64,000 bases of DNA, taken from the NCBI GenBank assembly GCA_965153355.1, contig OZ231126.1:46252001-46316000 (forward strand), given 5' to 3'. Shown piece after piece: positions 2,977 to 40,001 of this stretch (its first letter is position 1; the number at the start of each line of letters is the position of its first letter). Under the pieces are notes generated by a model. That model worked only from the letters and a program-made list of their open reading frames with translations, did not search any database and was not told the origin of the DNA. Source of the stretch: Flaccisagitta enflata (taxonomy: Eukaryota). Position numbers and translations under genes: made by a program.

Positions 2977-4423
2977 TTGACGGTATGTTTTCCCCCTCGT
3001 GTGCTCAAAACCCATGTACCCGATCGTTTTTGATTATTCTTATATTATTACTACCTAGAACTAAAGAGATTTAGGATTTTTGATCCATTTTAGGGACCGC
3101 AAGTTCCATTTATTTATCACCACTCCAAGGTGGTTGTGGTGAAAATGTTGAAATTTGGTCACTTTGGGCTAAAAATCGGGCCACTTTGGTTTGGAAATTT
3201 GACCCGAAATCTGTGAGATTATGAAACTAGAGCTCAAGAGCTAACCAGTGGTGCAATCCGCATGTTGCTATCATTTTTTGTTAAGATTTGAGAGCTTTTC
3301 AAATATGGAAGGGTATGAGGGTTATTTTACCAATTGATTTTAGTGGTCAATTTTGACATTTTTTACAATTTTTGATATATTTCCGCTTTGGATGGACAAA
3401 TCTGGATGAAATTGGTGTCCAAATTGAAGAGTTTTTGATACTCTAGATGAATCTGGTAAAATTTTGGATCGATATGACCCTCTACAAGCAGGTTCCAAAA
3501 AAGTGATTTTTTTCGCCATTTTGGCTACTTTGGTCAAAAAATTTGGACACTTCTGAGATAGAAAATGACAAAAAATCAGTGGGTAAATTAAACTACTGCT
3601 CAAGATCTAACCAATGGTGCAATCGGCATGTCAATAGGTTAAAGCATATAGATTTGGCAAAGCTTCAAAGATCAGTGGGTATAATAAAATGACATTTTTT
3701 GGTCATTATGAGCCTAAAAGCTCTGCCAAATCTATATGCTTCAACATAACAACATGCCGATTGCACCATTTGTTAGATCTTGAACAGTAGTTTAATTTGC
3801 CCACTGATTTTTTGTCATTTTCTATCTCGGAAGTGCCCAAATTTTTTGACCAAAGTGGCCAAAATGGCGAAAAAAATCAATTTTCAGCACCTGCTTTTAG
3901 AGTCTCCCAAAAATTTTTAGGGTCATATTGATCAAAAATTTTTCTAGATTCAGTTAGAGCATCAAAAACTCTTCAATTTGGTCACCAATTTCATCCAGAT
4001 TTGTCTATCCAAAGTGAAGATATAACAAAAAATGTAAAAAACGTCAAAATTGACCACAAAATTCAATTGGTAAAATAACCCTCATACCCTTCCATCTTTG
4101 AAAAGCTCTCAAATCTTAACAAAAAATGATGGCAACATGAAGATTGCACCACTGGTTAGCTCTTGAGCTCTAGTTTCATAATCTCACAGATTTCGGGTCA
4201 AATTTCCAAACCAAAGTGGCCCAATTTTGAGCCCAAAGTGACCAAATTTCAACATTTTCACCACAACCACCTTGGAGTGGTGATAAATAAATGGAACTCG
4301 CGGTCCCTAAAATGGATCAAAAATCCCAAATCTCTTTAGTTCTAGGTAGTAATATTATAAAAGTAATCAAAAACGATCGGGTACATGGGTTTTGAGCACA
4401 TGAGGGGCAAAACATACCGTCAA
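2977..4423. mobile_element. Near-perfect 1.45-kb foldback element
   Basis: Arms 2977-~3665 and ~3718-4423 are reverse complements (TTGACGGTATG...CATACCGTCAA). The element is flanked by the direct repeat CTATAAGC (2969-2976, 4424-4431) and interrupts a family-D repeat. Confidence 0.85.
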
Positions 4424-6810: not shown

Positions 6811-7749
6811 ACCATTTCTAAACGAATCGACTTTAAAAGGTCTGCTTGGCGCCATTTTGTAGATAATAAGTTATATTTTCATTTTCTCTTAAATTTTTTT
6901 TAGTTTCCTTTTGTCAGATATGATTTTCATGCTTTGAAAGACAGAACTAAAAGTACAGAATCCCTTGCATTGAGAAGTCATGGTGATGCTCACTTCAAAC
7001 TGTTGCCATTTCCAAACGAATTGAGCTACAACTTTCTGCTTGGTCAAGATTTGAAGAACTTTTGAATATCTTTCAAATGGTCACCAATTTTTTGTATTTT
7101 CATTGAAAGCAAGCCGGTTAAAAGCATCAAAAACCGCCATGTACGGTTTTTTTTTCTTTGTACATGGTTAGATATAGCGTGGGAAAAAAATCAAGGCCAG
7201 ATACACGGCTACTGCAGTTGCATGCCAGTGAGCAGGGGCAGTGATAGAAAAGGTCACTAAGGCATTTGGGCAGGAGTGGTAAGTTCAAAAAACTCAAGAA
7301 CGCGAAAAAAGCAAAAAGGGGACCAACCAACCAACCAACAGACGAAGCGGGGTGTAGATTCGCGTAGCACGCGACTTATAAAACACAGTAAAAGGTTCCA
7401 AAAATGAAAAAAAAATAGCTGAATGCAGAAAAGAAGAAGGAAAAATTTAAAGAGATTGGATTTTGAACTCTTAGCACTCATTATATTATCTCATTACCAC
7501 AACACCTTTTCACACAGCCTAAATATATATCTTAGCCTATAAATAAAATTAAAACATTTTTCTGCTTAACAGAGAAAAAAGTCTAAGAGGAGGGAGGGGG
7601 GAAGGTAAGATTCAAAAGCCGCCCAACTGTATACATCCCTGTCATTCAAGTTACTTCGATTAAAAGATGGACTTTAACCCCGACAATTTTTTCTTCTTTC
7701 ATTCGAACAAAACACTCCCTCGGTGGAAATTCCAAAGAAGCCAAGAAAA

Positions 7750-8896
7750 ATGGAGATTACTTCGTTCCAAGACACCGCCATCCGCTCATCTCAGTTAGAA
7801 GAGTACGACGAAAAGGAATTGACTACCTCGCAATATGCAGACAACGTCGCCGACTCCATCGCCAACTGCTTCATCAAAGTACTCGACGATCGGATTGATT
7901 ACCGAGGCCGCGCCATAAGACACGGCTCATTCACGCGCCAAACAAACCTGGCCAAACCGGGGATCAGCGACGTCGATGTTCTTTGTTTTATCGGCGAAGG
8001 ATATGGATACGATATCCACACTCTCAGCGACTTTGAACAAGTCAGAGAAGACGCGCTGGTTGATATAAAAAATCACTTGCTGCAAAACCTCGATTCTCAC
8101 TTTTATGAAGTCAATCTTCATCAATTCTGGCCGAGATTGTGCGTCAGTTTCCTCGTCAAAACTGGCTATCGCGCCCGCACTCCTTGGAAAGTCGATGTCA
8201 TCATCGCTTTCGAAGGAGTGAATCACAATGGCATCCTGAGGGAAATGCGCTCCTTGAGCCGCACCGAAGCCAACCACAATGCCAACGCGTTGAGCATCCA
8301 ACGGAACGACCTTATCAGTCGATATCTCGACGATTGCCCGCGACTCAGGTAAAGAGACAATATAATTTTCCGATTAACGCCCTGGTAATGTGATTCATCC
8401 GTTAATTTTGTCTCATAATTCTCGACCAGAACTAACTCATAACTCGCCAAATCCGAACAGGAAACTCATCCGTTTGGTGAAGCACTTCAATACAGAAATT
8501 TCCATGTCGCGGATCAACTGCCGGAAGGAAATTGCCGGGTTCGTTTTCGAGGTGATGATTGTGATTCTCTACGCCAACGGGGACATTCCCGAAAACTTTG
8601 CAATGAACCGCGCCCTGTGTACATGTCTCGAAACGATCGCCTTTTGCGAAAACGACATCTATCTGCAGTCCGATGTCGCTAAGGTCCATCCGGAGTACCC
8701 CTGTGGCGACGACTTGGATCGCCTAGAGCAGAATTGCGAACCTTCAAATGGGCTCGTCGTTCTGGATCCAGTGGCGCCGTCCCTTAACATCGCTAGAAAT
8801 AAGAAGACCGGGAAGGCATGGGCCATCTTGCGGCAAGATGCCGAAAGCGTCTATTATCATCTAAAACGCAATGGAGTTGCACCTTATCGCAATTAA
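7750..8896 (+). CDS. 2'-5'-oligoadenylate synthetase (OAS)-like nucleotidyltransferase, 344 aa; exons 7750-8348 and 8461-8896
   Basis: Motifs HGSFTRQT..SDVD (pol-beta hG[S]x9-13DhD type), third acidic residue in KVDVIIA, LIRLVKHF, FVFEVM and VVLDPVAPSLN match OAS signatures. The 112-nt phase-2 intron (GTAAAG...CTAAC...AACAG) joins the two ORFs in frame (PRLR-KLIRLVKH). Confidence 0.88.
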
Positions 8897-16093: not shown

Positions 16094-28401
<12,308 letters not shown>

Positions 28402-29896: not shown

Positions 29897-30452
29897 AAAC
29901 AAGGCCGGATCCACGGCAATCCAGTCGCGGACGGTTTGGCAGGGGCGGTGCGAAAACCGCTCGGAATTCAAAAATGTGACGGACGGTCGGACCTGCCGAC
30001 CGACCTACCGACCGACACGACAAGGTGTAGAGTCGCGTGTCCGCGACTAAAAAGAATGAAAGAAACAAGTCATCAAAGGATCGGTACCCCATGCCCTGCT
30101 TGGAGTGATTGCTGAAGAGGTGGAGTGAGGGCACAGGGGTGAATTTCTATATGTCCTGAAAGGGCATATTTGAGGCCTTTGAAGCAATTTAACATGATAT
30201 TCAAATTTCAATGGGAGTTTTTCTTTTTTTCAATTTCTCATCAATTTGCCATGTTATTCAACGGAAATTTTACATTCTTTTCATTTTTCATCAATTTTCC
30301 ATGTTATTCAATATGAAGTTTCGCATTTTATTCAATAGTCTTATTTCAGAAAGTTAGAAGCTTGGGGAACGTGCGTAACGGTTCACCCTGTGTCCTACAG
30401 GACACGGCCTTTAGGGCCGCTGCCCCGGAAAGAAAAAAGAAAAGGAAAGAAA

Positions 30453-30493
<41 letters not shown>

Positions 30494-30612
30494 GAGAAAG
30501 AAAGAAAGAAAAAGAAAGAAAGAAAAAAAGAAAGAAAGAAAGAAAGAAAAAAAATAAATGAAAAGAAAGAAAAAAGAAAAAGAAAAGAAAAAGAAAGAAA
30601 AAGAAAAAGAAA

Positions 30613-30652
<40 letters not shown>

Positions 30653-30707
30653 GGGAACGAAAGAAAGAAAAAAAGATTGAAAGAAACAAGGAAAGAAAGA
30701 AAGAAAA

Positions 30708-30755
<48 letters not shown>

Positions 30756-30769
30756 AAAAGAAAAAAATA

Positions 30770-30845
<76 letters not shown>

Positions 30846-30899
30846 GAGAAAGAGAGAAAGAAAGAGAGAAAGAAAGAAAAAGGATGAAAGAAAAAAGGA

Positions 30900-30974
<75 letters not shown>

Positions 30975-30985
30975 TAAGAAAGGAA
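29722..30985. repeat. (AAAG)n microsatellite tracts (29722-29898, 30428-30985) flanking family A and B elements
   Basis: Directly visible. Confidence 0.95.
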
Positions 30986-31476
30986 GTACGGTAACTGACG
31001 GGAAACCGCTTGGTAATAGAAATCTGATGTTTGTTCTTGATCAAGCCCGCCAACAGTGCAGTGCAGTGCAGTGTTTACACAAATACATTTTAGAGCCAAA
31101 ACTACAGTTACACCCCGGTACACCGTACCCAAAAATTATGGAAATCCGCCTATTGCAAATATAAAATGCTTTTCCCCTCAGGCCATTTCTTTTTTATCTC
31201 TCATGTGGGCCATAATGTAGATCCGCGTATAACAAAAAATAGAAAAAAGAAAATTATTTGGTCCTTTGACATCCGTTATTGCGGGTTTGTCTTTACTTTT
31301 ATTCTGTTTGACGTTAATTCCAACCCTCCGTGTCGGCTTCTTCTGTCTAGGTCACAAAGGAAAGACTGCATTTGTGTGATATTCGATGCGCTTTCTGTAG
31401 CCCCGCCATCTTTAGCCTATCATTAGCCTCGTGGTTTAAGCCTCGTGAATGTTCAGTTGCCGTTCACTCGTCGTTC

Positions 31477-31670
31477 ATTGGCTGACGTCATCATGGTTGT
31501 ATTCATCCGCGCACACTTTATCGTTATTGCCATATTTGGGCATTGCGTCACCCGTTTTGAACCGCTTCACTGTCGCTCTAGAAGTATCTATGCGCGTGGG
31601 TGAGGGTTGAGTTTGGGAACTATTTTTTGTATTTGCTCTTAAATACCGGAGCGCGTGGTCGTTTGTCAGT
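31477..31670 (+). promoter_or_regulatory. Predicted LTR Pol II promoter: inverted CCAAT box plus CRE, TATA-like box, initiator
   Basis: ATTGG at 31477-31481, TGACGTCA at 31483-31490, TTAAATA at 31639-31645 and TCAGT at 31666-31670 (TATA about 29 nt upstream of the Inr A). AATAAA at 31837-31842. Confidence 0.55.
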
Positions 31671-31707
31671 AGCAGTTCGTGGTGTAGTGTGGAACCGTCC
31701 GACCATA

Positions 31708-31814
31708 GTAAGTTGAAGTTGATATTGAATTGTGTGTATTAAATTGTTTGTATTTCTTTACGCCCCTTAACAAGGCCTAATGGTTTCTCCCCCTTTTTTT
31801 GTCCCTTTTTGTAG
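31708..31814 (+). other. Predicted 107-nt spliceosomal intron inside the LTR (copy at 39326-39432)
   Basis: Consensus donor GTAAGT, branch-like CTAAT at 31777-31781, long polypyrimidine tract and TAG acceptor. The size matches host introns in this window. Confidence 0.75.
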
Positions 31815-32625
31815 ATTTGACGTGTCGATGCGATGAAATAAATGTTTTTGATTCAACCACGTGCTTTTCGATAGACGGAAAGGATAAGCTACTCAATTCT
31901 CACGCTAGAAATATCCAATAGTCAAATTATGTGGACTTCGCCGCTCTTTTCTCATCGTCCTTCGATCCAGTGAAATTATCGGACAATCGTCGCGGACCCG
32001 TCTATCGTCGCGGACCCGTCAATCGCCGTGGTCCTGTCAATCGCGCCTTTTGTTCTCAAGAGGAAAAGAAAGTTTTGTCCTCGTCGCATCGGAGATTCCC
32101 AAAACGCGGCTCTCTCTGTCTCTCTCCTTCCCTCACTGCCGGACCGAGAAAAACAAACGGAAAAATCGCGAGTCTGGAGTGGGGAGAATTAAAAGTTTTC
32201 CGTCAGCTTCTAAAGGGAGAAAACAAGTAAGAAGTCAGCCTACCGCCCGCTGCTTCTACATCGCCGCTAAAACGCCTAAAAGTAAAGTAATAACGTGATT
32301 TCAAGTGAAAGTTAATCCGTTGTTCATCGTGTTTAAGTGAACACGTGGGCCATCGTGAGTTGATCTTGCATTGGCCCAAAGTCGGAAAGGTTGTACCTCC
32401 TCTTTCTCCGTTCGTCCATTCATCAAGTATATCTCCGTCTCTTAATCCATCCATTGTCCGTCGGTCCAAACATCGGTGTAAGTCATCGTAGTTTGGTCCG
32501 TCATCGCTAATCTCTATCTCTTTCTTCGTCACTGGGGAAAAGTAACCCGACGCTTCCATTGTTGTTCATCGTTCAATTGACTGTTGTTCTCCGACGATTG
32601 ATTGTTGCCTATCGCCGCCTGAGTA

Positions 32626-35600
32626 ATGACCCGTAGCTCAAACAAGGAAACGCTTGATCGGTTCGTCGCTCTCTCTGAACAAATTGGGGAGAAAGAAGAG
32701 ACCGACGACGACTACAGTAATCTCGCCGACCAGTTTAATTCTCTTCTCGCCGATCTGCTTTTACAAGTGTCCACATTTTCGCCCGAACAAAGACAGTTCA
32801 TCGAAGAAAAAGCCGGCGAAGGAATACAAAGTAAGGAGTCAAGGGAATTATACGCCCGCTTTTACAACGCCCACAGTAACCTCGACCGCTTTCTAAAAGG
32901 CACCGAATCAGCGGACGACGATTATACAGTAGTCGGCAATAACTTTAATTCTCTCTTAAAAGAAGCTCTCGATAATCTTCCCTCGTTTACTCCCGCTCAA
33001 CGCCGGTTCATTGAAGATAGCAAACGTAAAACTTTTCTTCCTAAACATCGTTTGGCCCGTTGTCGGGCCCGAAGCCGATCGCAGTCTCGGTCACGTTCTC
33101 TCTCTGTCTCTCATCAACAAAGTCTCTCTTCGGAGGAAAGTTTTGCGTCTACATCTACGAATTCAACCATCATGGGCGACGCCGCTCAAAAGAAAGCGGC
33201 CGAAGAGGCGGCAGCAAGAAAAGCCGCCGAAGAATCGGCAGCTCTCAATAACTCTACCGAATCAACCATGTCATCCAAAGTGGCTTTGCTCAAGTTAAAA
33301 TTCGACGAAGAAGCCGACGCCATGGAAATGGAAAAGTTAAAACTAGCTCAAGCCTTCAAGAAGAAGAAACGCGATCTACTACAGGCGGCGATCGAGGAGG
33401 GTCTCGACAATGACTTAGCCGAGTGCATCGCATCAATCGACATCGAGGGTACGGCGGCCGCTCCGTCAACGCCCGCCGCAGGTGCTGCAGCCGCCGCAGC
33501 CTCGCCGCAGCCCGCCGACATCTCGCAACTGGTCGGTAGCCAACGATTGAAGAATACAACGCCAGCTACCGCCGAAAAGTTCAGTGGCGGAACGGAGGCG
33601 TACTCGCGCTTCATCGTCAAATTCAACAGCCAAGTGATGGATCTTCCAGGAGTCTCCGATGCCGAGAGGTTCGTCGCCCTTCAAGACTGGACCGCCGGTG
33701 AAGCTCACAAGATGATCTCCACATACATCTACGAAACAGATAAGTCCACAGCTTTGAAGGAGGCGTTAGAAGAGTTGAAGTTTTTCTATGGGAAAAGGCA
33801 AGGAAAGGCCGAGGGCAATTTGGCCAAGATTTTGGAAGGGAAGGAAGTCCCGACTAATTCAATTGAGGGGATCAAGGAGTTAATCCAAGAGATTAAGGAG
33901 ATGGCAGCCTTTGCAAAGGCAACAAAGGATGATTCATTTTTGGAGCTGAAGGCCACAGTGGTATCCATAGTGAAGAAAAGGTTGAGTTACAAGCTCAAGG
34001 AGAAATTCTCCAAAGTGTCCCGAAGTGCAGAGGATAAAGGTCAGAAGGTCAATGTAGACTTTCTCATCAAGTTTTTGAAAGACTGGTTCAAAGAAATCAG
34101 CTGCAGCTTTGGGATGTGCGAGTTGGTTGATAGTAAGCCTGCATCCTCATCATCTCCCTCTTCTTCTCCTAGTTTCAAAGGTTTGCCAAAGACGGCCGCT
34201 CCGTCGAAACCATCACCATTCTCCAAGGCCAACATTGCCGCCATGGAAGCAAACGAGCTGGGTATCTCCCAGCGCCGCCCGCAGCAGCCGCAGCCTCGCT
34301 TTTCGACGCCGCAGCAGCCGCGCACATCCTCGTCGACGCCGCAGCAGCCGCGCGCATTCTCGTCGACGCAGCAGCAGCATCAGTGGGTCCCCAGCAGCAT
34401 CCAGTGGTCTCAACAGACTCAGCAGTTAAGTCCAGTTTGTTTGTACTGTTCAGATGCCCATCTTTTGGATGGATGTCCCAAGTTTAGTGAATTGAGTGTA
34501 CCAGAAAGGAAGCAATTCCTGTTCAAGCAGCGTCTCTGTCTGAGATGCTTCGGCAGGAACCACCAGATTGGGAAATGTCGTGAGAAAGTCCAATGTTTAT
34601 TGTGCAATCGATTTGGTCACAATACCCTCCTTCATGCAGCTCCTCTTACCTCTCAGAGTCAAGTCCCTTCCTCAAGCAGTGGAATGGTCAATGTGATGCC
34701 GGCCGGATCCAACGTGGATGTGCAGAATCGTCTCCTTCAGCTCTCTGGGACCCAGGTGGTGGATCCAACTCCAGCTGAGACAGGGGCCGCTCCCCTCGAG
34801 AGTCAGGTGAACGTGTCTGCCGCAGTGTCAAATGTTGATTGTTTCAGACCAGTCCTCGCTGTTAAAGTTAATCTTCCTGGTGGTAGGTTCACCTCAGTTT
34901 ATGCCTTATATGATACGGGCTCAAATAAAACGCTCATTACCCAAGATTTCCAGCGCAAGTTCAACATCGCGACTCGACAGCAGTTTGTTACGCTGAATGG
35001 ACTGGGCTCGTCCTCATCGGGTCAAAGGGATGTTGCAACATTCTCGCTCCAGTCGCTCGTGGATCCCAAGACGGTTCTGGATGGCGTCGAAGCCTACGTC
35101 GTCGAATCACTACCCTTCAAGCCAGGTCATATCGCTCGACAGCATCATGTTGACAAGTTTGATTACATGGAAGGTGTTAGGTTGATTGAGTTGGATTCTG
35201 ATAACATTTCGATTCTTATTGGAACTGACCTTGCACCTGCCTTTGTCCATTACGAGGCTCGCATTCTCAATCGCTCCTCTCCAGTCGCGCTGAGATCGCC
35301 ATTTGGTTGGTCGTTGATGGGCCCAATCGACCGCCCGTCGAAGTCTGCGTGGGCCGCTTACGTCTCTTTCGATGAAGGGAAACAGCTGAATGACCAATTG
35401 GAGAAATATTTTCGCGCTGACTTTCCGGATGCGCCATCTGCCAAGGTTGGAAGGTCGCATCAAGATCAGCGCGCCGAGGACATGATGAAAGCTTCATGCA
35501 AGTTTGTTGACGGGAGAATTCAAGTGGGACTCCTGTGGGACAAAGATCGTGAGACAACCGCCACTCTCATGCCATCCGCAGCATCAGAGGCTACCGCACG

Positions 35601-38600
35601 CGTTCGGACGATCAAGATGGTTCGTCGACTCTCCAAGACTCCGCATCTCAAGAAGGTGGTCGAAGACTCAGTGGAGAAGCTCCTCGCAGAAGGTTGGGCT
35701 GAAGTTGTTGACATGAATGCCCCGACATCAGACATTTTGTGGTATCTCCCGGGTGTCCTTAGTGAGCGCAAGGGCAAGCACAGGTTTTGTCTGGATGGCG
35801 CTGCCGAAAGTTTTGGTGTGAGTTTGAATTCAATGCTGTTAACTGGCGAGGGATCAAATGTCACAATCTTTAACGCTTTGTCGAATGCGCGAAGATATAA
35901 CTTTTTCGCGTGTGGTGACATCAAATCATGTTTTCACCAGATTCTTATCCCTCCAGAAGATCGAGATGCCTTAAGGTTCTTCAGGTGGCTGCCTGGACAA
36001 GAAGACGTCCTTGAGTGCATCCGAATGTGCCGCAATATCTTCGGATCCGCATGTTCGACTGCGATCAATTCCTTTGCCATTCGCTACAACGCAGAAATCA
36101 ATGGCGCCGATTTTGCCAGGGAAGTCATTGAGGCGATCCTTCGAGCTTACGTCGACGATGTCCCGACATCATCTCCCACAGAGGAAAGTAGCATTGAGCT
36201 GGTCCGCGGTCTTATTGATTTGTGTGCTCGTGGAGGCTTCCCATTGACAAAATTTGTCGCTAACTCTCAAGCCGTCTTAGATTCCATCCCTACAGATCTC
36301 AAAGCAGAGGGATTCAAAGGACAAGGGCCGCTCCCTTCGACGTCGGTGCTCGGGGTCAAGTATGACCCAAAGGAGGATACTTTTCGCATCAAGTCCGCCG
36401 CGAAAAGTGGTGGGGGTCCATGGACTCGAAAACGCGTTCTCTCCGTGGTGATGGGTATCTTCGACCCTCTCGGCCAAGTCGCTCCGTACACGCTGTTGGG
36501 AAAGAAGATGAACCAGGAGTTGTGCGCCGCCAAGTTTGGCTGGGATCCGCCGCTACCGCCTGAAGTTGACGCCAGAGTGGAGAAGTGGTTCCAAGGTATG
36601 GAGCAATTGCAGTCTTTGCCCATTGTTCGATCATTTGGTTTGACCTATCATGGCCCACCCGTTATCCTCATCACATTCACTGATGCCTCGATCATCGGCT
36701 ACGGCGCCGTTTCTTTCTTTGTTATTGAGGCCACAGGCCAAGTCGTTTGGGTTGCAGCTAGGTCACGTGTCTCGCCAACTAAGGAGACCAACGTCGACGT
36801 CAACGGATCAATTCCTAGGTTGGAGTTGCAGGCTGCCGTCACTGGAGTGGAATTGTCGACGCAGATCAAGGAAGACATCGATGTCCAGATTTCCCGGGAA
36901 TACTTCTTCACGGATTCCACGACAGTCTACTTTTGGATCCAAGGAAAGGATGGTAAGCATCCAGTGTTTGTTGCCAACCGTCTCAACAAAATTCATCTTA
37001 CCCATCCAGATGCTCCGCCAAAGCAGTGGAGATGGGTGCCTACTGGTCTTAACCCTGCCGACGTCGTCTCCCGAGGTGCCATGCCTGACGACACCGAAGC
37101 CTGGAAGCTGTTTCACAAAGGTCCGCGCTTCATCGCCTGTCCTGAAGATGAGTGGCCTTTGCTTCCAGTCCCCGACGAAGCCACGGTGGGGGCATCCAAC
37201 GCCGCTGATCCATCAGTTCAGGAAAGTAACCCTGTTGTCATTGGTTGCTTGGAAAGTTTGCTACGTCGCAAAAGTAACTTCACATCGATTATGCGCATTG
37301 TCAGTTACCTTCTTAGGTACGTGGGCCGCTCCCGCAAGAAAGTTGACAAGTTTAATCCTACAATTTCGTCTCTCCCCAGTGCCTCAGAGATGCAAGATGC
37401 CAAGGATCTCCTCATTCGAGACTGCCAACGTCGCCATTTTCAAGCGGAAATCACAGTCTACACTGAAGGGACTGTGAAGAAGAGGAAGATCAAGAGAGTT
37501 CTCAACAGGTCAGCTTCGTCTTTGCGCCAGTTGAACCCATTTGTTGATGACAAGGGATTTCTCCGAGTTGGAGGAAGGTTGGGTCTCTGCAAAGAGGCAT
37601 TTGAAGTGTCTCATCCATTGATTCTGCCTTACGAAGATCCTCTTGTTAATCATCTCATCAAATTCATTCATGAGGAATTTGGTCACGCCGGCATCGAGTA
37701 TGTTCTCTCCAAGTTACGCCGTCAGTTCTGGATCATCAAGGGTCGCCAAGCCGTCAAGAAGGTTCTGTGGCGATGTCTCACGTGTCGCCGTCGCCATCGT
37801 CATCCGGAGCAGCAACAGATGGCGCCTCTCCCATCTTATCGCATCGAAGTCGCGCCGCCCTTCACAGACACCGGAGTGGATCTCTTCGGCCCCATCTCAG
37901 TTAAGTGTGGCCGTTATGGGAAGAAGGTGTGGGTGGTGTTGTTCTGCTGCATGCGAGTCAGAGCAGTTTTTCTTGAAGTAGTGAAGGATTTGGAAGCTCA
38001 GACGTTCATCGAAACCTTACAGCGTTTTCACTCCTTCTACCCTTCCGTCAAGCGTCTCCACAGTGATCAGGGGACCAATCTCGTCGGCGCCAACAATTTG
38101 CTGCAGTCAATGCTCGCCGAGTGGAAGAACGTCCCCGAGTCTGCTGTATTTCCTCGGCCAGTGGGCATCGAGTGGATCTTCATCCCGCCTCATGCGCCAC
38201 ATCAAGGTGGAAGCTGGGAACGTCTCGTTGGAGTGGTGAAGAAGACCATTGGAGGTATCACCTCGGGGCTGACCCCCAGTGATATCCAATACGAACGCTT
38301 TCGCACTATCGTCCAAGTCGCCGCAGGGATCGTCAACCGCCGCCCGTTGACGCGATTCTCTTCCGATCCTCAAGATCTTCGGCCGCTGACACCAGCGCAT
38401 TTCCTCAATCCAGCGATGTCTCATCTGGTCCTTTCGTCCGACGCTCTCCCATCGGTGCCGCTCACTGGAACGGAGCTGCGTCGATCGAAGGATGTCCTTC
38501 GTCCAATCCTCGATTCGTTTTGGAAGCAGTGGACTACTGAGTACGTCGCAAGTCTCCAGAAGAGATCCAAGTGGATCTGTCGCCAACGCAACATCGCCAA

Positions 38601-38829
38601 AGGTGATCTCGTCCTCCATGTTGAAGAATCTATGCCCAGGGAACGCTGGCCCTTGGCCATCGTGACGGGTATCATCCCTAGTGAAGATGGACTCGTTCGT
38701 CGTGTCCACATCCGAACCTCATCCGGTCAATCCTTCGAACGTGACGTCAGGAAGATCATCCTCCTCGAACGCGAAGGGGAAGATGAGAAGGTGGAGGAGG
38801 TGGTCATCGATGGTGGGGGAGATGAATGA
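32626..38829 (+). CDS. Bel/Pao Gag-Pol polyprotein (Gag with triple Cys-His knuckle, aspartic protease, RT, RNase H, integrase), 2067 aa
   Basis: CLYCSDAH..C / CLRCFGRNH..C / CLLC..HNTLLH, ALYDTGS, GDIKSCFHQ, YVDD, FTDAS, IPRLELQAA, H..H..CLTC, GVDLFGP, SDQGTN, GGSWERLV and FWKQWTTEY. No stops or frameshifts. Confidence 0.97.
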   Translation: MTRSSNKETLDRFVALSEQIGEKEETDDDYSNLADQFNSLLADLLLQVSTFSPEQRQFIEEKAGEGIQSKESRELYARFYNAHSNLDRFLKGTESADDDYTVVGNNFNSLLKEALDNLPSFTPAQRRFIEDSKRKTFLPKHRLARCRARSRSQSRSRSLSVSHQQSLSSEESFASTSTNSTIMGDAAQKKAAEEAAARKAAEESAALNNSTESTMSSKVALLKLKFDEEADAMEMEKLKLAQAFKKKKRDLLQAAIEEGLDNDLAECIASIDIEGTAAAPSTPAAGAAAAAASPQPADISQLVGSQRLKNTTPATAEKFSGGTEAYSRFIVKFNSQVMDLPGVSDAERFVALQDWTAGEAHKMISTYIYETDKSTALKEALEELKFFYGKRQGKAEGNLAKILEGKEVPTNSIEGIKELIQEIKEMAAFAKATKDDSFLELKATVVSIVKKRLSYKLKEKFSKVSRSAEDKGQKVNVDFLIKFLKDWFKEISCSFGMCELVDSKPASSSSPSSSPSFKGLPKTAAPSKPSPFSKANIAAMEANELGISQRRPQQPQPRFSTPQQPRTSSSTPQQPRAFSSTQQQHQWVPSSIQWSQQTQQLSPVCLYCSDAHLLDGCPKFSELSVPERKQFLFKQRLCLRCFGRNHQIGKCREKVQCLLCNRFGHNTLLHAAPLTSQSQVPSSSSGMVNVMPAGSNVDVQNRLLQLSGTQVVDPTPAETGAAPLESQVNVSAAVSNVDCFRPVLAVKVNLPGGRFTSVYALYDTGSNKTLITQDFQRKFNIATRQQFVTLNGLGSSSSGQRDVATFSLQSLVDPKTVLDGVEAYVVESLPFKPGHIARQHHVDKFDYMEGVRLIELDSDNISILIGTDLAPAFVHYEARILNRSSPVALRSPFGWSLMGPIDRPSKSAWAAYVSFDEGKQLNDQLEKYFRADFPDAPSAKVGRSHQDQRAEDMMKASCKFVDGRIQVGLLWDKDRETTATLMPSAASEATARVRTIKMVRRLSKTPHLKKVVEDSVEKLLAEGWAEVVDMNAPTSDILWYLPGVLSERKGKHRFCLDGAAESFGVSLNSMLLTGEGSNVTIFNALSNARRYNFFACGDIKSCFHQILIPPEDRDALRFFRWLPGQEDVLECIRMCRNIFGSACSTAINSFAIRYNAEINGADFAREVIEAILRAYVDDVPTSSPTEESSIELVRGLIDLCARGGFPLTKFVANSQAVLDSIPTDLKAEGFKGQGPLPSTSVLGVKYDPKEDTFRIKSAAKSGGGPWTRKRVLSVVMGIFDPLGQVAPYTLLGKKMNQELCAAKFGWDPPLPPEVDARVEKWFQGMEQLQSLPIVRSFGLTYHGPPVILITFTDASIIGYGAVSFFVIEATGQVVWVAARSRVSPTKETNVDVNGSIPRLELQAAVTGVELSTQIKEDIDVQISREYFFTDSTTVYFWIQGKDGKHPVFVANRLNKIHLTHPDAPPKQWRWVPTGLNPADVVSRGAMPDDTEAWKLFHKGPRFIACPEDEWPLLPVPDEATVGASNAADPSVQESNPVVIGCLESLLRRKSNFTSIMRIVSYLLRYVGRSRKKVDKFNPTISSLPSASEMQDAKDLLIRDCQRRHFQAEITVYTEGTVKKRKIKRVLNRSASSLRQLNPFVDDKGFLRVGGRLGLCKEAFEVSHPLILPYEDPLVNHLIKFIHEEFGHAGIEYVLSKLRRQFWIIKGRQAVKKVLWRCLTCRRRHRHPEQQQMAPLPSYRIEVAPPFTDTGVDLFGPISVKCGRYGKKVWVVLFCCMRVRAVFLEVVKDLEAQTFIETLQRFHSFYPSVKRLHSDQGTNLVGANNLLQSMLAEWKNVPESAVFPRPVGIEWIFIPPHAPHQGGSWERLVGVVKKTIGGITSGLTPSDIQYERFRTIVQVAAGIVNRRPLTRFSSDPQDLRPLTPAHFLNPAMSHLVLSSDALPSVPLTGTELRRSKDVLRPILDSFWKQWTTEYVASLQKRSKWICRQRNIAKGDLVLHVEESMPRERWPLAIVTGIIPSEDGLVRRVHIRTSSGQSFERDVRKIILLEREGEDEKVEEVVIDGGGDE

Positions 38830-38990
38830 CTTTACTTCATCGTTCTCGTGTTGCGCTTTACGTTATCATTTGTTCATTGCCTAATGCAGTTAGTTGTTTA
38901 TGTTAGCTATCTCATTCATGGGTTTGGATGTGTTGTGGGTAGTTTAGTGTTGGTTAGAAATCTGACATTTGTTTGATTTCTAGATGGGGG

Positions 38991-39538
38991 TGTGTGATAT
39001 TCGATGCGCTTTCTGTAGCCCCGCCATCTTTAGCCTATCATTAGCCTCGTGGTTTAAGCCTCGTGAATGTTCAGTTGCCGTTCACTCGTCGTTCATTGGC
39101 TGACGTCATCATGTTTGTATTCATCCGCGCACGCTTTATCGTTATTGCCATATTTGGGCATTGCGTCACCCGTTTTGAACCGCTTCACTGTCGCTCTAGA
39201 AGTATCTATGCGCGTGGGTGAGGGTTGAGTTTGGGAACTATTTTTTGTATTTGCTCTTAAATACCGGAGCGCGTGGTCGTTTGTCAGTAGCAGTTCGTGG
39301 TGTAGTGTGGAACCGTCCGACCATAGTAAGTTGAAGTTGATATTGAATTGTGTGTATTAAATTGTTTGTATTTCTTTACGCCCCTTAACAAGGCCTAATG
39401 GTTTCTCCCCCTTTTTTTGTCCCTTTTTGTAGATTTGACGTGTCGATGCGATGAAATAAATGTTTTTGATTCAACCACGTGCTTTTCGATAGACGGAAAG
39501 GATAAGCTACTCAATTCTCACGCTAGAAATATCCAATA
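38991..39538 (+). repeat. 3' LTR
   Basis: Direct repeat of the 5' LTR, followed by the TSD GCATT. Confidence 0.95.
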
Positions 39539-40001
39539 GCATTGTTTGTGACACGGTGGCAAAACTCAAAAGCATATTCAAATTCAGCCGAGGTAAATCC
39601 ATAAAAATATCCGTCTGAATTTGAAATTTGTTTTTATATGTTGAATATCTGCGGGTTGATCGACTTGTCGTATTCATAATGATCTTAACCGTTTATTCCC
39701 GAAAACATCGAAAAGCTGTTTCAAGAGCTAATAAGTTTACATACATGAAAGCTGTGTCTTAAGTTCCCACTATCTGGGGCTTGTCTGGGTACTTGCTAAA
39801 GATTTAAGATATCTAATTCTGTTTGTTTTATTTCATTCTAAACGATATATTATATATATTAGTTATTATATATATTAGTTTGTCGGTCTGTTGGTCCTTC
39901 CGTAAGTTCGAAACAAAGGTTTCGGGCTTTTCTGTTCTTCGCGGGCACTTACTATTGCCAAAACGGCTTCTGTATAACTACCCCTGCCCCCCCCCCCTTG
40001 C

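Follow-up and report, generated by a model that had tools for sequence, protein, structure and literature searches.

Complementarity between the post-LTR site and the long terminal repeat of a Bel/Pao retrotransposon from Flaccisagitta enflata: a candidate for self-primed reverse transcription

What starts minus-strand DNA synthesis in a Bel/Pao retrotransposon whose 5' long terminal repeat (LTR) is not followed by the usual site for a transfer RNA (tRNA) primer? The question is raised by the element at 31373-39538 of a 64,000-nucleotide (nt) stretch of Flaccisagitta enflata contig OZ231126.1 (positions 46,252,001 to 46,316,000, forward strand), which is called the window here. An earlier note on this DNA proposed that the bases after the LTR pair with a junction formed by the splicing of an intron within the LTR, and that the primer would exist only after splicing. 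According to the present analysis, the self-complementary site of non-tRNA type is well supported, whereas the need for splicing is not shown, and no spliced contig was found. The element probably does without a host tRNA for starting its minus-strand DNA. Self-priming by the element's own RNA, in whatever form, is the best single reading, and we give it an even chance of being correct. The features are listed in Table 1.

On sequence grounds, the element is an intact and young, recently inserted Bel/Pao LTR retrotransposon. In the LTR-LTR alignment and by BLAST, the two LTRs are 99.6% identical, with two differences at 31496 and 31515. At both positions the majority base of the family in the DNA run X1 is the base of the 3' LTR. 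Thus, it is the 5' LTR that changed at both positions after insertion. Counting the G at 31921/39539 as LTR sequence would shorten the target-site duplication to 4 bp (CATT). The right end of the LTR (...AATA, 31917-31920) carries TA instead of the usual CA, the left end is TGTG, and the terminal inverted repeat is imperfect (TGTGTGATATT versus TATTGGATATT). The gag-pol product contains CCHC knuckles, an aspartic protease, a Pao-type reverse transcriptase/ribonuclease H (RNase H) region and an integrase. Pfam detected Peptidase_A17 (2e-32, residues 1268-1432), DUF5641 (2.1e-24, residues 1960-2048) and Integrase_H2C2 (4.3e-09); the match to Asp_protease_2 was weak, under its Pfam cut-off. These matches bear out the Bel/Pao identity assigned in the earlier note, and the other traits of the group (LTRs, target duplication and polypurine tract) are also present.

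In a search of a large protein collection, in which 492 proteins were found at E<=0.001 among 7979 candidates scored, the closest relatives were six proteins (P0002-P0007) with 52-55% identity over pol, all from ENA metagenome contigs. Matches of ~35% follow, from animals that include sea urchin, coral, barnacle and tunicate, and the homologues are Bel/Pao-type proteins, with marine and other animals as their sources. A search with the protein query P0001 gave no match in viral contigs or genome contigs, and one locus in metagenome contigs (L004, 33% identical, pol only, without an LTR). The sequencing runs containing the element stretch are marine metagenomes and one organism. In the DNA run of this organism (X1), the family reaches a very high abundance, its summed contig depth being in the thousands. 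No second copy was found within the 64-kb window. At several leader positions, e.g. 32396, 32608 and 32621, the entire X1 depth carries a base other than that of the window; thus, this intact copy belongs to a minor subfamily. Deletion variants of the family in U3, the part of the LTR upstream of the transcript, were also seen in run X1 (joints 31427>31637 and 31495>31633).

The sequence GTCAAATTATG is located at 31921-31931, directly after the 5' LTR, and TGG is absent from these 11 bases, in agreement with the earlier note. A script showed that their reverse complement is exactly CATA plus ATTTGAC, and the proposed 11/11 match to the junction left by removal of 31708-31814 was thereby confirmed. 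Among the 579 GT-AG pairs of the LTR, 31708/31815 is the sole pair whose junction matches, and the 11-mer is present once in the window. The additional pairing of GGAC with GTCC across a small bulge is present as well; it comprises five pairs when the U31932-G31701 wobble is counted, and the bulge is of 2 nt. Unspliced RNA had been said to pair over only 7 nt, and this also holds: the longest contiguous LTR complement is of 7 nt at 31815. The segment 31815-31821 is the only 7-mer complement of the first post-LTR bases in the LTR, and it lies inside the predicted R region, which is repeated at both ends of the RNA. In this pairing C31821 lies opposite G31921, which directly follows the LTR, and the 3' end of the complement abuts the LTR edge, as is required of a primer.

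For the statistics, a set of 4325 words was made from 3848 distinct junction 11-mers and all contiguous LTR 11-mers. A random composition-matched 11-mer matches any of these words with P=0.0011 (2,000,000 trials). The duplex between the 16-mer and the spliced leader, which consists of 11 pairs, the bulge and five further pairs including one G-U, has an energy of -18.9 kcal/mol, reached by 0 of 2000 shuffles. The corresponding duplex with the unspliced leader has an energy of -10.3 kcal/mol, reached by 560 of 2000 shuffles. By duplex energy, 31708/31815 ranks first among the 103 GT-AG pairs in the transcribed part, and four of 1373 other 16-mers of the element pair equally well with the spliced leader. 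The complementarity of the site to the element's own LTR is real and beyond chance for one element. With very many windows scanned, a one-in-a-thousand match can still arise. The junction is, however, that of the a-priori best intron, which argues against mere scan-wide chance.

Related copies bear on the question of a tRNA primer. Such relatives are known solely from two loose contig ends, at 31914 and 31927, among the 23 listed out of 156, and the listed variation on 31250-34249 comprises 40 of 390 base differences and 12 of 67 insertions and deletions. After the LTR end, the contig of run X16 reads GTCAAAT CATA CGGACTACGTCG, and that of run X20 reads GTCAAAT CTTA CGGACTACGTCGCTC... Among the loose ends listed, GTCAAAT and YGGAC are kept in 3/3 family variants; bases 8-12 of the site differ among the three, and the flanks are kept. 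The splice-specific bases 31928-31931 are TATG in the window, CATA in X16 and CTTA in X20. The TGG of the window at 31932 (+12) is CGG in both relatives, and a TGG-type tRNA site at this position was therefore rejected. The lack of TGG in the first 11 bases and its replacement by CGG in the relatives argue that a canonical tRNA-type primer site is unlikely in this element. As bases 8-12 are variable, it is difficult to bring the site into line with a fixed host primer of 11-18 nt; if the site were restored in each cycle from a fixed host tRNA, such variability would not be expected. If the LTRs of the relatives resemble that of the window, their base 8 (C) or bases 8-9 (CT) would pair with unspliced G31814 and A31813, giving an unspliced helix of 8-9 contiguous pairs. 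In the window itself, U31928 is able to wobble-pair with unspliced G31814. Judged from the bases alone, two transitions in exon 1 could suffice for a co-varying exon-1 end of the X16 type.

Rfam detected no tRNA or small RNA in the window, and an Rfam E-value search of 31300-32700 gave no match. ARAGORN reported a tRNA-His of 92 nt at 3179-3270, which is doubtful, as the Rfam tRNA model stays under its threshold everywhere in the window. A pattern of the LTR end and the site was found at three loci in viral contigs (L001-L003), and these were rejected as chance matches in unrelated A/T-rich coding sequence. A leader pattern of 22 fixed bases gave 0 matches in metagenome contigs and 0 in genome contigs.

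Within the LTR, 31708-31814 is predicted to be the best intron. With a crude hand-made splice score, the acceptor at 31815 was the top of 61 AG sites in 31373-32700, and the donor at 31708 was the third of 115 GT sites and the best GT between the predicted start and the acceptor. Of the two GT sites outscoring it, the predicted start lies downstream of one, and the other follows the primer site. The donor reads CATA/GTAAGT at 31707/31708, the acceptor reads TAG/ATTTGAC at 31814/31815 after the pyrimidine tract, and the branch-like motif CTAAT is at 31778-31782. The transcription start given near 31668 in the earlier note agrees with the predicted TTAAATA (31639-31645) and TCAGT (31666-31670) motifs. 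The LTR motifs (TATA-like, initiator-like, branch-like and so on) are named after consensus patterns and are putative. A scan of the LTR for bacterial promoters and terminators gave no match; such signals have no bearing on a eukaryotic element.

Contigs of three metatranscriptome runs (X13, X16 and X20, from two studies) and of the DNA run X1 were aligned to 31250-34249. The joint 31707>31815 was absent from the contigs of the three RNA libraries, and contigs can drop rare forms. The donor was bridged unspliced by two X16 contigs (31461-31759 and 31661-31759); record 11 of X13 was left out of this count because it has only 21 bases past the donor. The acceptor was bridged unspliced by three contigs (X13, 31738-31920; X16, 31733-31900; X20, 31713-31894), all of which continue into U5, the part of the LTR downstream of R. 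In the 869 DNA contigs of run X1, six joints were listed, none of them removing the intron, and no intron-less LTR DNA was seen. According to the alignment, the 107-nt segment is present in both the 5' LTR and the 3' LTR, so that the intron is indeed kept in both, as had been claimed. The splicing itself, postulated for 31708-31814, was not borne out, as none of the three RNA contig sets has a spliced joint and all bridging RNA contigs are unspliced. The RNA libraries are metatranscriptomes that possibly contain DNA, and their depth is no measure of expression. Thousands of genomic copies make read-through RNA likely. Thus, splicing is neither shown nor excluded by these contigs.

One X16 contig shows a junction at 31822. 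In this contig, 255 letters precede 31822, and the last 30 of them are identical to the internal coding sequence 35054-35083 in the protease region (a 23-mer is exact at 35061, and all 30 letters match by eye). The LTR part begins with the very base that follows ATTTGAC, and the microhomology at the junction is G(C/T)GTCGA. The chimera looks like a deletion product of misplaced strand transfer, and a misplaced first strand transfer at G(C/T)GTCGA would yield it. The position is a hint, as strong-stop DNA would be expected to end at 31822 with the RNA cut after C31821. For a primer allowing synthesis to the transcription start, 31822 would be one of ~250 possible break points.

From these results, we infer the following mechanism. 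The 5' part of the element RNA would fold back, and AUUUGAC (31815-31821), which lies in R right after the intron-like segment, would pair with GUCAAAU directly after the LTR. The RNA would be cut after C31821, and the new 3' end would be extended through U5 and the 3' part of R, from 31920 back to 31822. Then the short strong-stop DNA would move to the 3' R. The core helix would have 7 pairs (8-9 in the relatives), and splicing would not be required. In this copy, the end of exon 1 (CAUA and GUCC) would add a second part to the duplex. As only 31822-31920 would be copied from the 5' end and the rest of the LTR would be rebuilt from the 3' copy, the intron could persist, if the 3' R of the template is unspliced. 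The start site and the polyadenylation site (at about 31855-31860) assumed in this scheme are those predicted from LTR motifs. Such self-priming from the element's own R region, in principle like that of Tf1 and without a need for splicing, is the form that we favor, though only tentatively.

We count the conservation of GTCAAAT in 3/3 variants, together with its position as the sole LTR complement in the predicted R, for self-priming, as well as the CCHC knuckles of Gag. The unspliced state of all bridging RNA contigs, the absence of intron-less LTR DNA, and the fit of bases 8-9 of the relatives to unspliced G31814 and A31813 are counted for its splice-independent form. Several points weigh against it. 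Seven A/U-rich pairs make a weak primer helix. In the predicted ensemble of the unspliced leader, the AUUUGAC:GUCAAAU helix has a probability of 0, since GUCAAAU is taken up by pairing with the start of the intron-like segment. The whole unspliced leader is less stable than shuffles (z +2.3). The unspliced 11-mer duplex has an energy of -9.0 kcal/mol, with 47 of 2000 shuffles as good, and at 16 nt or 20 nt the unspliced duplex is no better than shuffles (560/2000 and 1021/2000, respectively). The 11/11 junction match would be partly coincidence (~1/64 to 1/256 per donor), and the fit of the relatives to the unspliced AG assumes LTRs like that of the window. The 31822 junction comes from one metatranscriptome contig, noticed for its position, and it fits splice-dependent and splice-independent self-priming equally. 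In addition, the profile of the family by the virus taxonomy committee ICTV, as far as its text was accessible, has the family as tRNA-primed (PMC8742986).

In the case of splice-dependent self-priming, the helix would form only after 31708-31814 is removed from the 5' R. The junction GUCC-GA-CCAUA/AUUUGAC would then pair over 11 contiguous bases, or 16 with the bulge, and the intron would be retained either through rebuilding of the LTR from an unspliced 3' R or through priming in trans by a spliced RNA. The 11/11 complementarity lies precisely at the best-predicted intron of the LTR, with its GTAAGT donor, CTAAT, 26-nt pyrimidine tract and TAG. The difference in duplex energy between the spliced and unspliced leaders, the first rank of this intron and the small number of equally good 16-mers, as given above, all favor this explanation. 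In the predicted ensemble of the spliced leader, all 15 listed pairs have a probability of ~0.47, and they occur in the minimum-energy fold. The differences between the window and X16 sites at bases 8 and 11 are transitions, which two exon 1 transitions could possibly match. Nevertheless, the joint is absent from the three RNA libraries and the 869 DNA contigs, where rare forms can be missed, the contigs bridging the donor or the acceptor are unspliced, some of them running into U5, and the four splice-specific bases differ across the three variants. It also requires that one and the same intron be removed from the 5' end of the template but left in place at its 3' end, or that a second RNA be involved, and the chance of a one-in-a-thousand match among very many windows applies here as well. 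We consider splice-dependent self-priming unlikely; that splicing of the 5' R licenses replication, with the intron passed on to the progeny through the unspliced 3' R, is likewise doubtful. A transcription start at 31813-31815 would make a plain Tf1-type case, and it was provisionally set aside because no TATA or initiator-like motif is present there.

The primer may also be a host RNA other than a tRNA 3' end, such as an internal tRNA region, a half-tRNA, a mitochondrial tRNA or a small RNA; the LTR match would then be coincidental. The reverse complement of 31932-31946 would presumably be an odd tRNA end, with U73 and C1, by general tRNA rules, and this is counted against a host RNA primer. 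In the accessible part of the ICTV profile of Belpaoviridae, host tRNAs are described as the primers, with an 18-nt site that matches the 3' region of tRNA-Arg or tRNA-Gly by complementarity, and the replication of the group is called poorly understood (PMC8742986). The Bel/Pao element Achilles is described with an 18-nt match to tRNA-Tyr (PMC4580426), and copia lineages have sites complementary to internal tRNA regions or half-tRNAs, according to the accessible texts (PMC5445492; PMC6317226). In this element, however, TGG is absent next to the LTR, just 7 bases are common to the three variants, the LTR match has a P of ~0.001 or less, and Rfam gave no tRNA or small RNA, as described above. 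We regard a host RNA primer of this kind as improbable. Alternatively, the complementarity may be a long-range RNA structure for processing or packaging. In unspliced RNA, the post-LTR bases would be paired to the 5' splice site and the exon 1 bases just before it, hiding the donor in the 5' copy only; the genomic RNA would thereby keep its intron, and something else would be the primer. In the predicted unspliced ensemble, the pair probabilities are 0.73-0.81 for CAUA:UAUG and 0.84-0.85 for GUCC:GGAC, and the pairing of GUCAAAU with the start of the intron also agrees with such a structure. The intron in both LTRs of this copy, the absence of intron-less DNA and the conservation of YGGAC are consistent with it. 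On the other hand, the unspliced duplex and the whole leader do no better than shuffles, as noted above, and the missing recognisable primer site is left unexplained. This explanation is very doubtful. The prediction of local folds downstream of the LTR gave no hairpin of unusual stability.

Self-priming by the element's own RNA, the preferred reading, is best compared with Tf1 of Schizosaccharomyces pombe, in which the first 11 RNA bases pair with the site and RNase H cuts between bases 11 and 12, according to the accessible text (PMC7175516). As in Tf1 and the sushi group, the site of the window element is located directly after the 5' LTR, and it is an 11-base complement of its own upstream RNA and probably not of a tRNA. 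Unlike in Tf1, the complement occupies +37 to +47 of the predicted spliced RNA, in the unspliced RNA its 7-nt core falls at +148 to +154, and the intron-like segment splits the complement. With the predicted start at A31668, the complement does not lie at the very 5' end of the RNA, which defines the Tf1 case. For an RNase H cut like the one that frees the Tf1 primer, the 31822 contig junction is only an indirect hint. The Pfam domains are those of Bel/Pao, whereas Tf1/sushi elements belong to Ty3/gypsy. The element resembles a Tf1-type self-primer in principle at most, and it lies outside that clade. Compared with canonical Bel/Pao elements (Belpaoviridae, Semotivirus), it has the same LTRs, target duplication, polypurine tract and single gag-pol with Pao-type domains, but it lacks TGG at the LTR edge and its site is variable. 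Splice signals in repeated or leader regions of transcripts are found in human immunodeficiency virus 2 (HIV-2), which has a leader intron, and in human T-cell leukaemia virus 1 (HTLV-1), which has a donor in R. The window element is similar in having predicted splice signals inside R. In HIV-2 and HTLV-1, a tRNA is the primer, and no link of priming to the splice junction is known.

Outside Tf1/sushi, self-priming has been predicted in Tcn1 chromoviruses and in the TAR elements (Houba and Osr-1) of Ty1/copia (PMC6317226). As in the window element, a non-tRNA site together with self-complementarity led to this prediction; they belong to other superfamilies, and the accessible part of that paper involves no intron. 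The fungal GalEa copia elements have no classical site and a Conserved Hairpin Site instead, with no Tf1-type complementarity according to the accessible text (PMC5445492). The window element likewise has an element-specific motif in place of a classical site. The GalEa motif is a local hairpin in that text, whereas the window element has complementarity to its LTR and no stable hairpin. The statement of the earlier note that no description of splice-dependent self-priming in Bel/Pao was known agrees with our search, in which no paper ascribing self-priming to the group was found among partly accessible main texts.

In the same partly accessible literature, established self-priming is restricted to Tf1/sushi, with predictions in a few gypsy and copia lineages. 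If the Bel/Pao element is self-primed, such priming arose or was kept in the third LTR superfamily. If the spliced junction is needed, RNA processing would be coupled to retroelement replication in a new way, with the testable puzzle of how an intron survives inside an LTR. As the family is abundant in the host DNA run, native material for tests should exist.

Table 1. Positions of the element and of its predicted signals in the window
Feature	Positions	Strand	Remarks
Target-site duplication GCATT, left copy	31368..31372	.	Same 5 bases after 3' LTR
5' LTR, 548 bp, TGTG...AATA	31373..31920	+	LTR-LTR alignment and BLAST
TATA-like TTAAATA	31639..31645	+	29 nt upstream of A31668; prediction only
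Initiator-like TCAGT, predicted start A31668	31666..31670	+	Prediction only
Predicted exon 1, 40 nt, 3' end GTCCGACCATA	31668..31707	+	Last 4 bases and GTCC(G) complementary to 31928-31936
Intron-like segment, 107 nt	31708..31814	+	GTAAGT donor, CTAAT, 26-nt pyrimidine tract, TAG
ATTTGAC, complement of first 7 post-LTR bases, proposed self-primer 3' end	31815..31821	+	
GTGTCGA, start of LTR part in one RNA-library contig joined to coding sequence 35054-35083	31822..31828	+	
AATAAA, putative polyadenylation signal	31837..31842	+	UGUA upstream at 31810-31813
Primer-binding-site position, GTCAAATTATG plus TGGAC	31921..31936	+	
Leader tandem 18-nt units, three and a third copies, ATCGTCGCGGACCCGTCT-like	31986..32045	+	Read from sequence
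Single gag-pol open reading frame, 2068 amino acids	32626..38829	+	Open from 32623, first ATG 32626
Polypurine tract AGATGGGGG	38982..38990	+	Abuts 3' LTR
3' LTR, 548 bp, with same intron-like segment	38991..39538	+	Alignment and BLAST
Target-site duplication GCATT, right copy	39539..39543	.	Alignment

The tandem 18-nt units of the leader could serve in packaging or in nucleocapsid binding. Short tandem repeats with a spacing of 8-14 nt and 83 register copies form a long array at 30398-31160, directly upstream of the element. Elsewhere in the window, a repeat array with a 9-nt period (20462-20951) lies within an open frame of 360 codons (20193-21272, minus strand). The open frame 8378-8893 matches OAS1_C (Pfam, 1.4e-07), the 2'-5'-oligoadenylate synthetase C-terminal domain, and probably represents an exon of an OAS-like gene of the host; a neighbouring open frame lies at 7678-8349.

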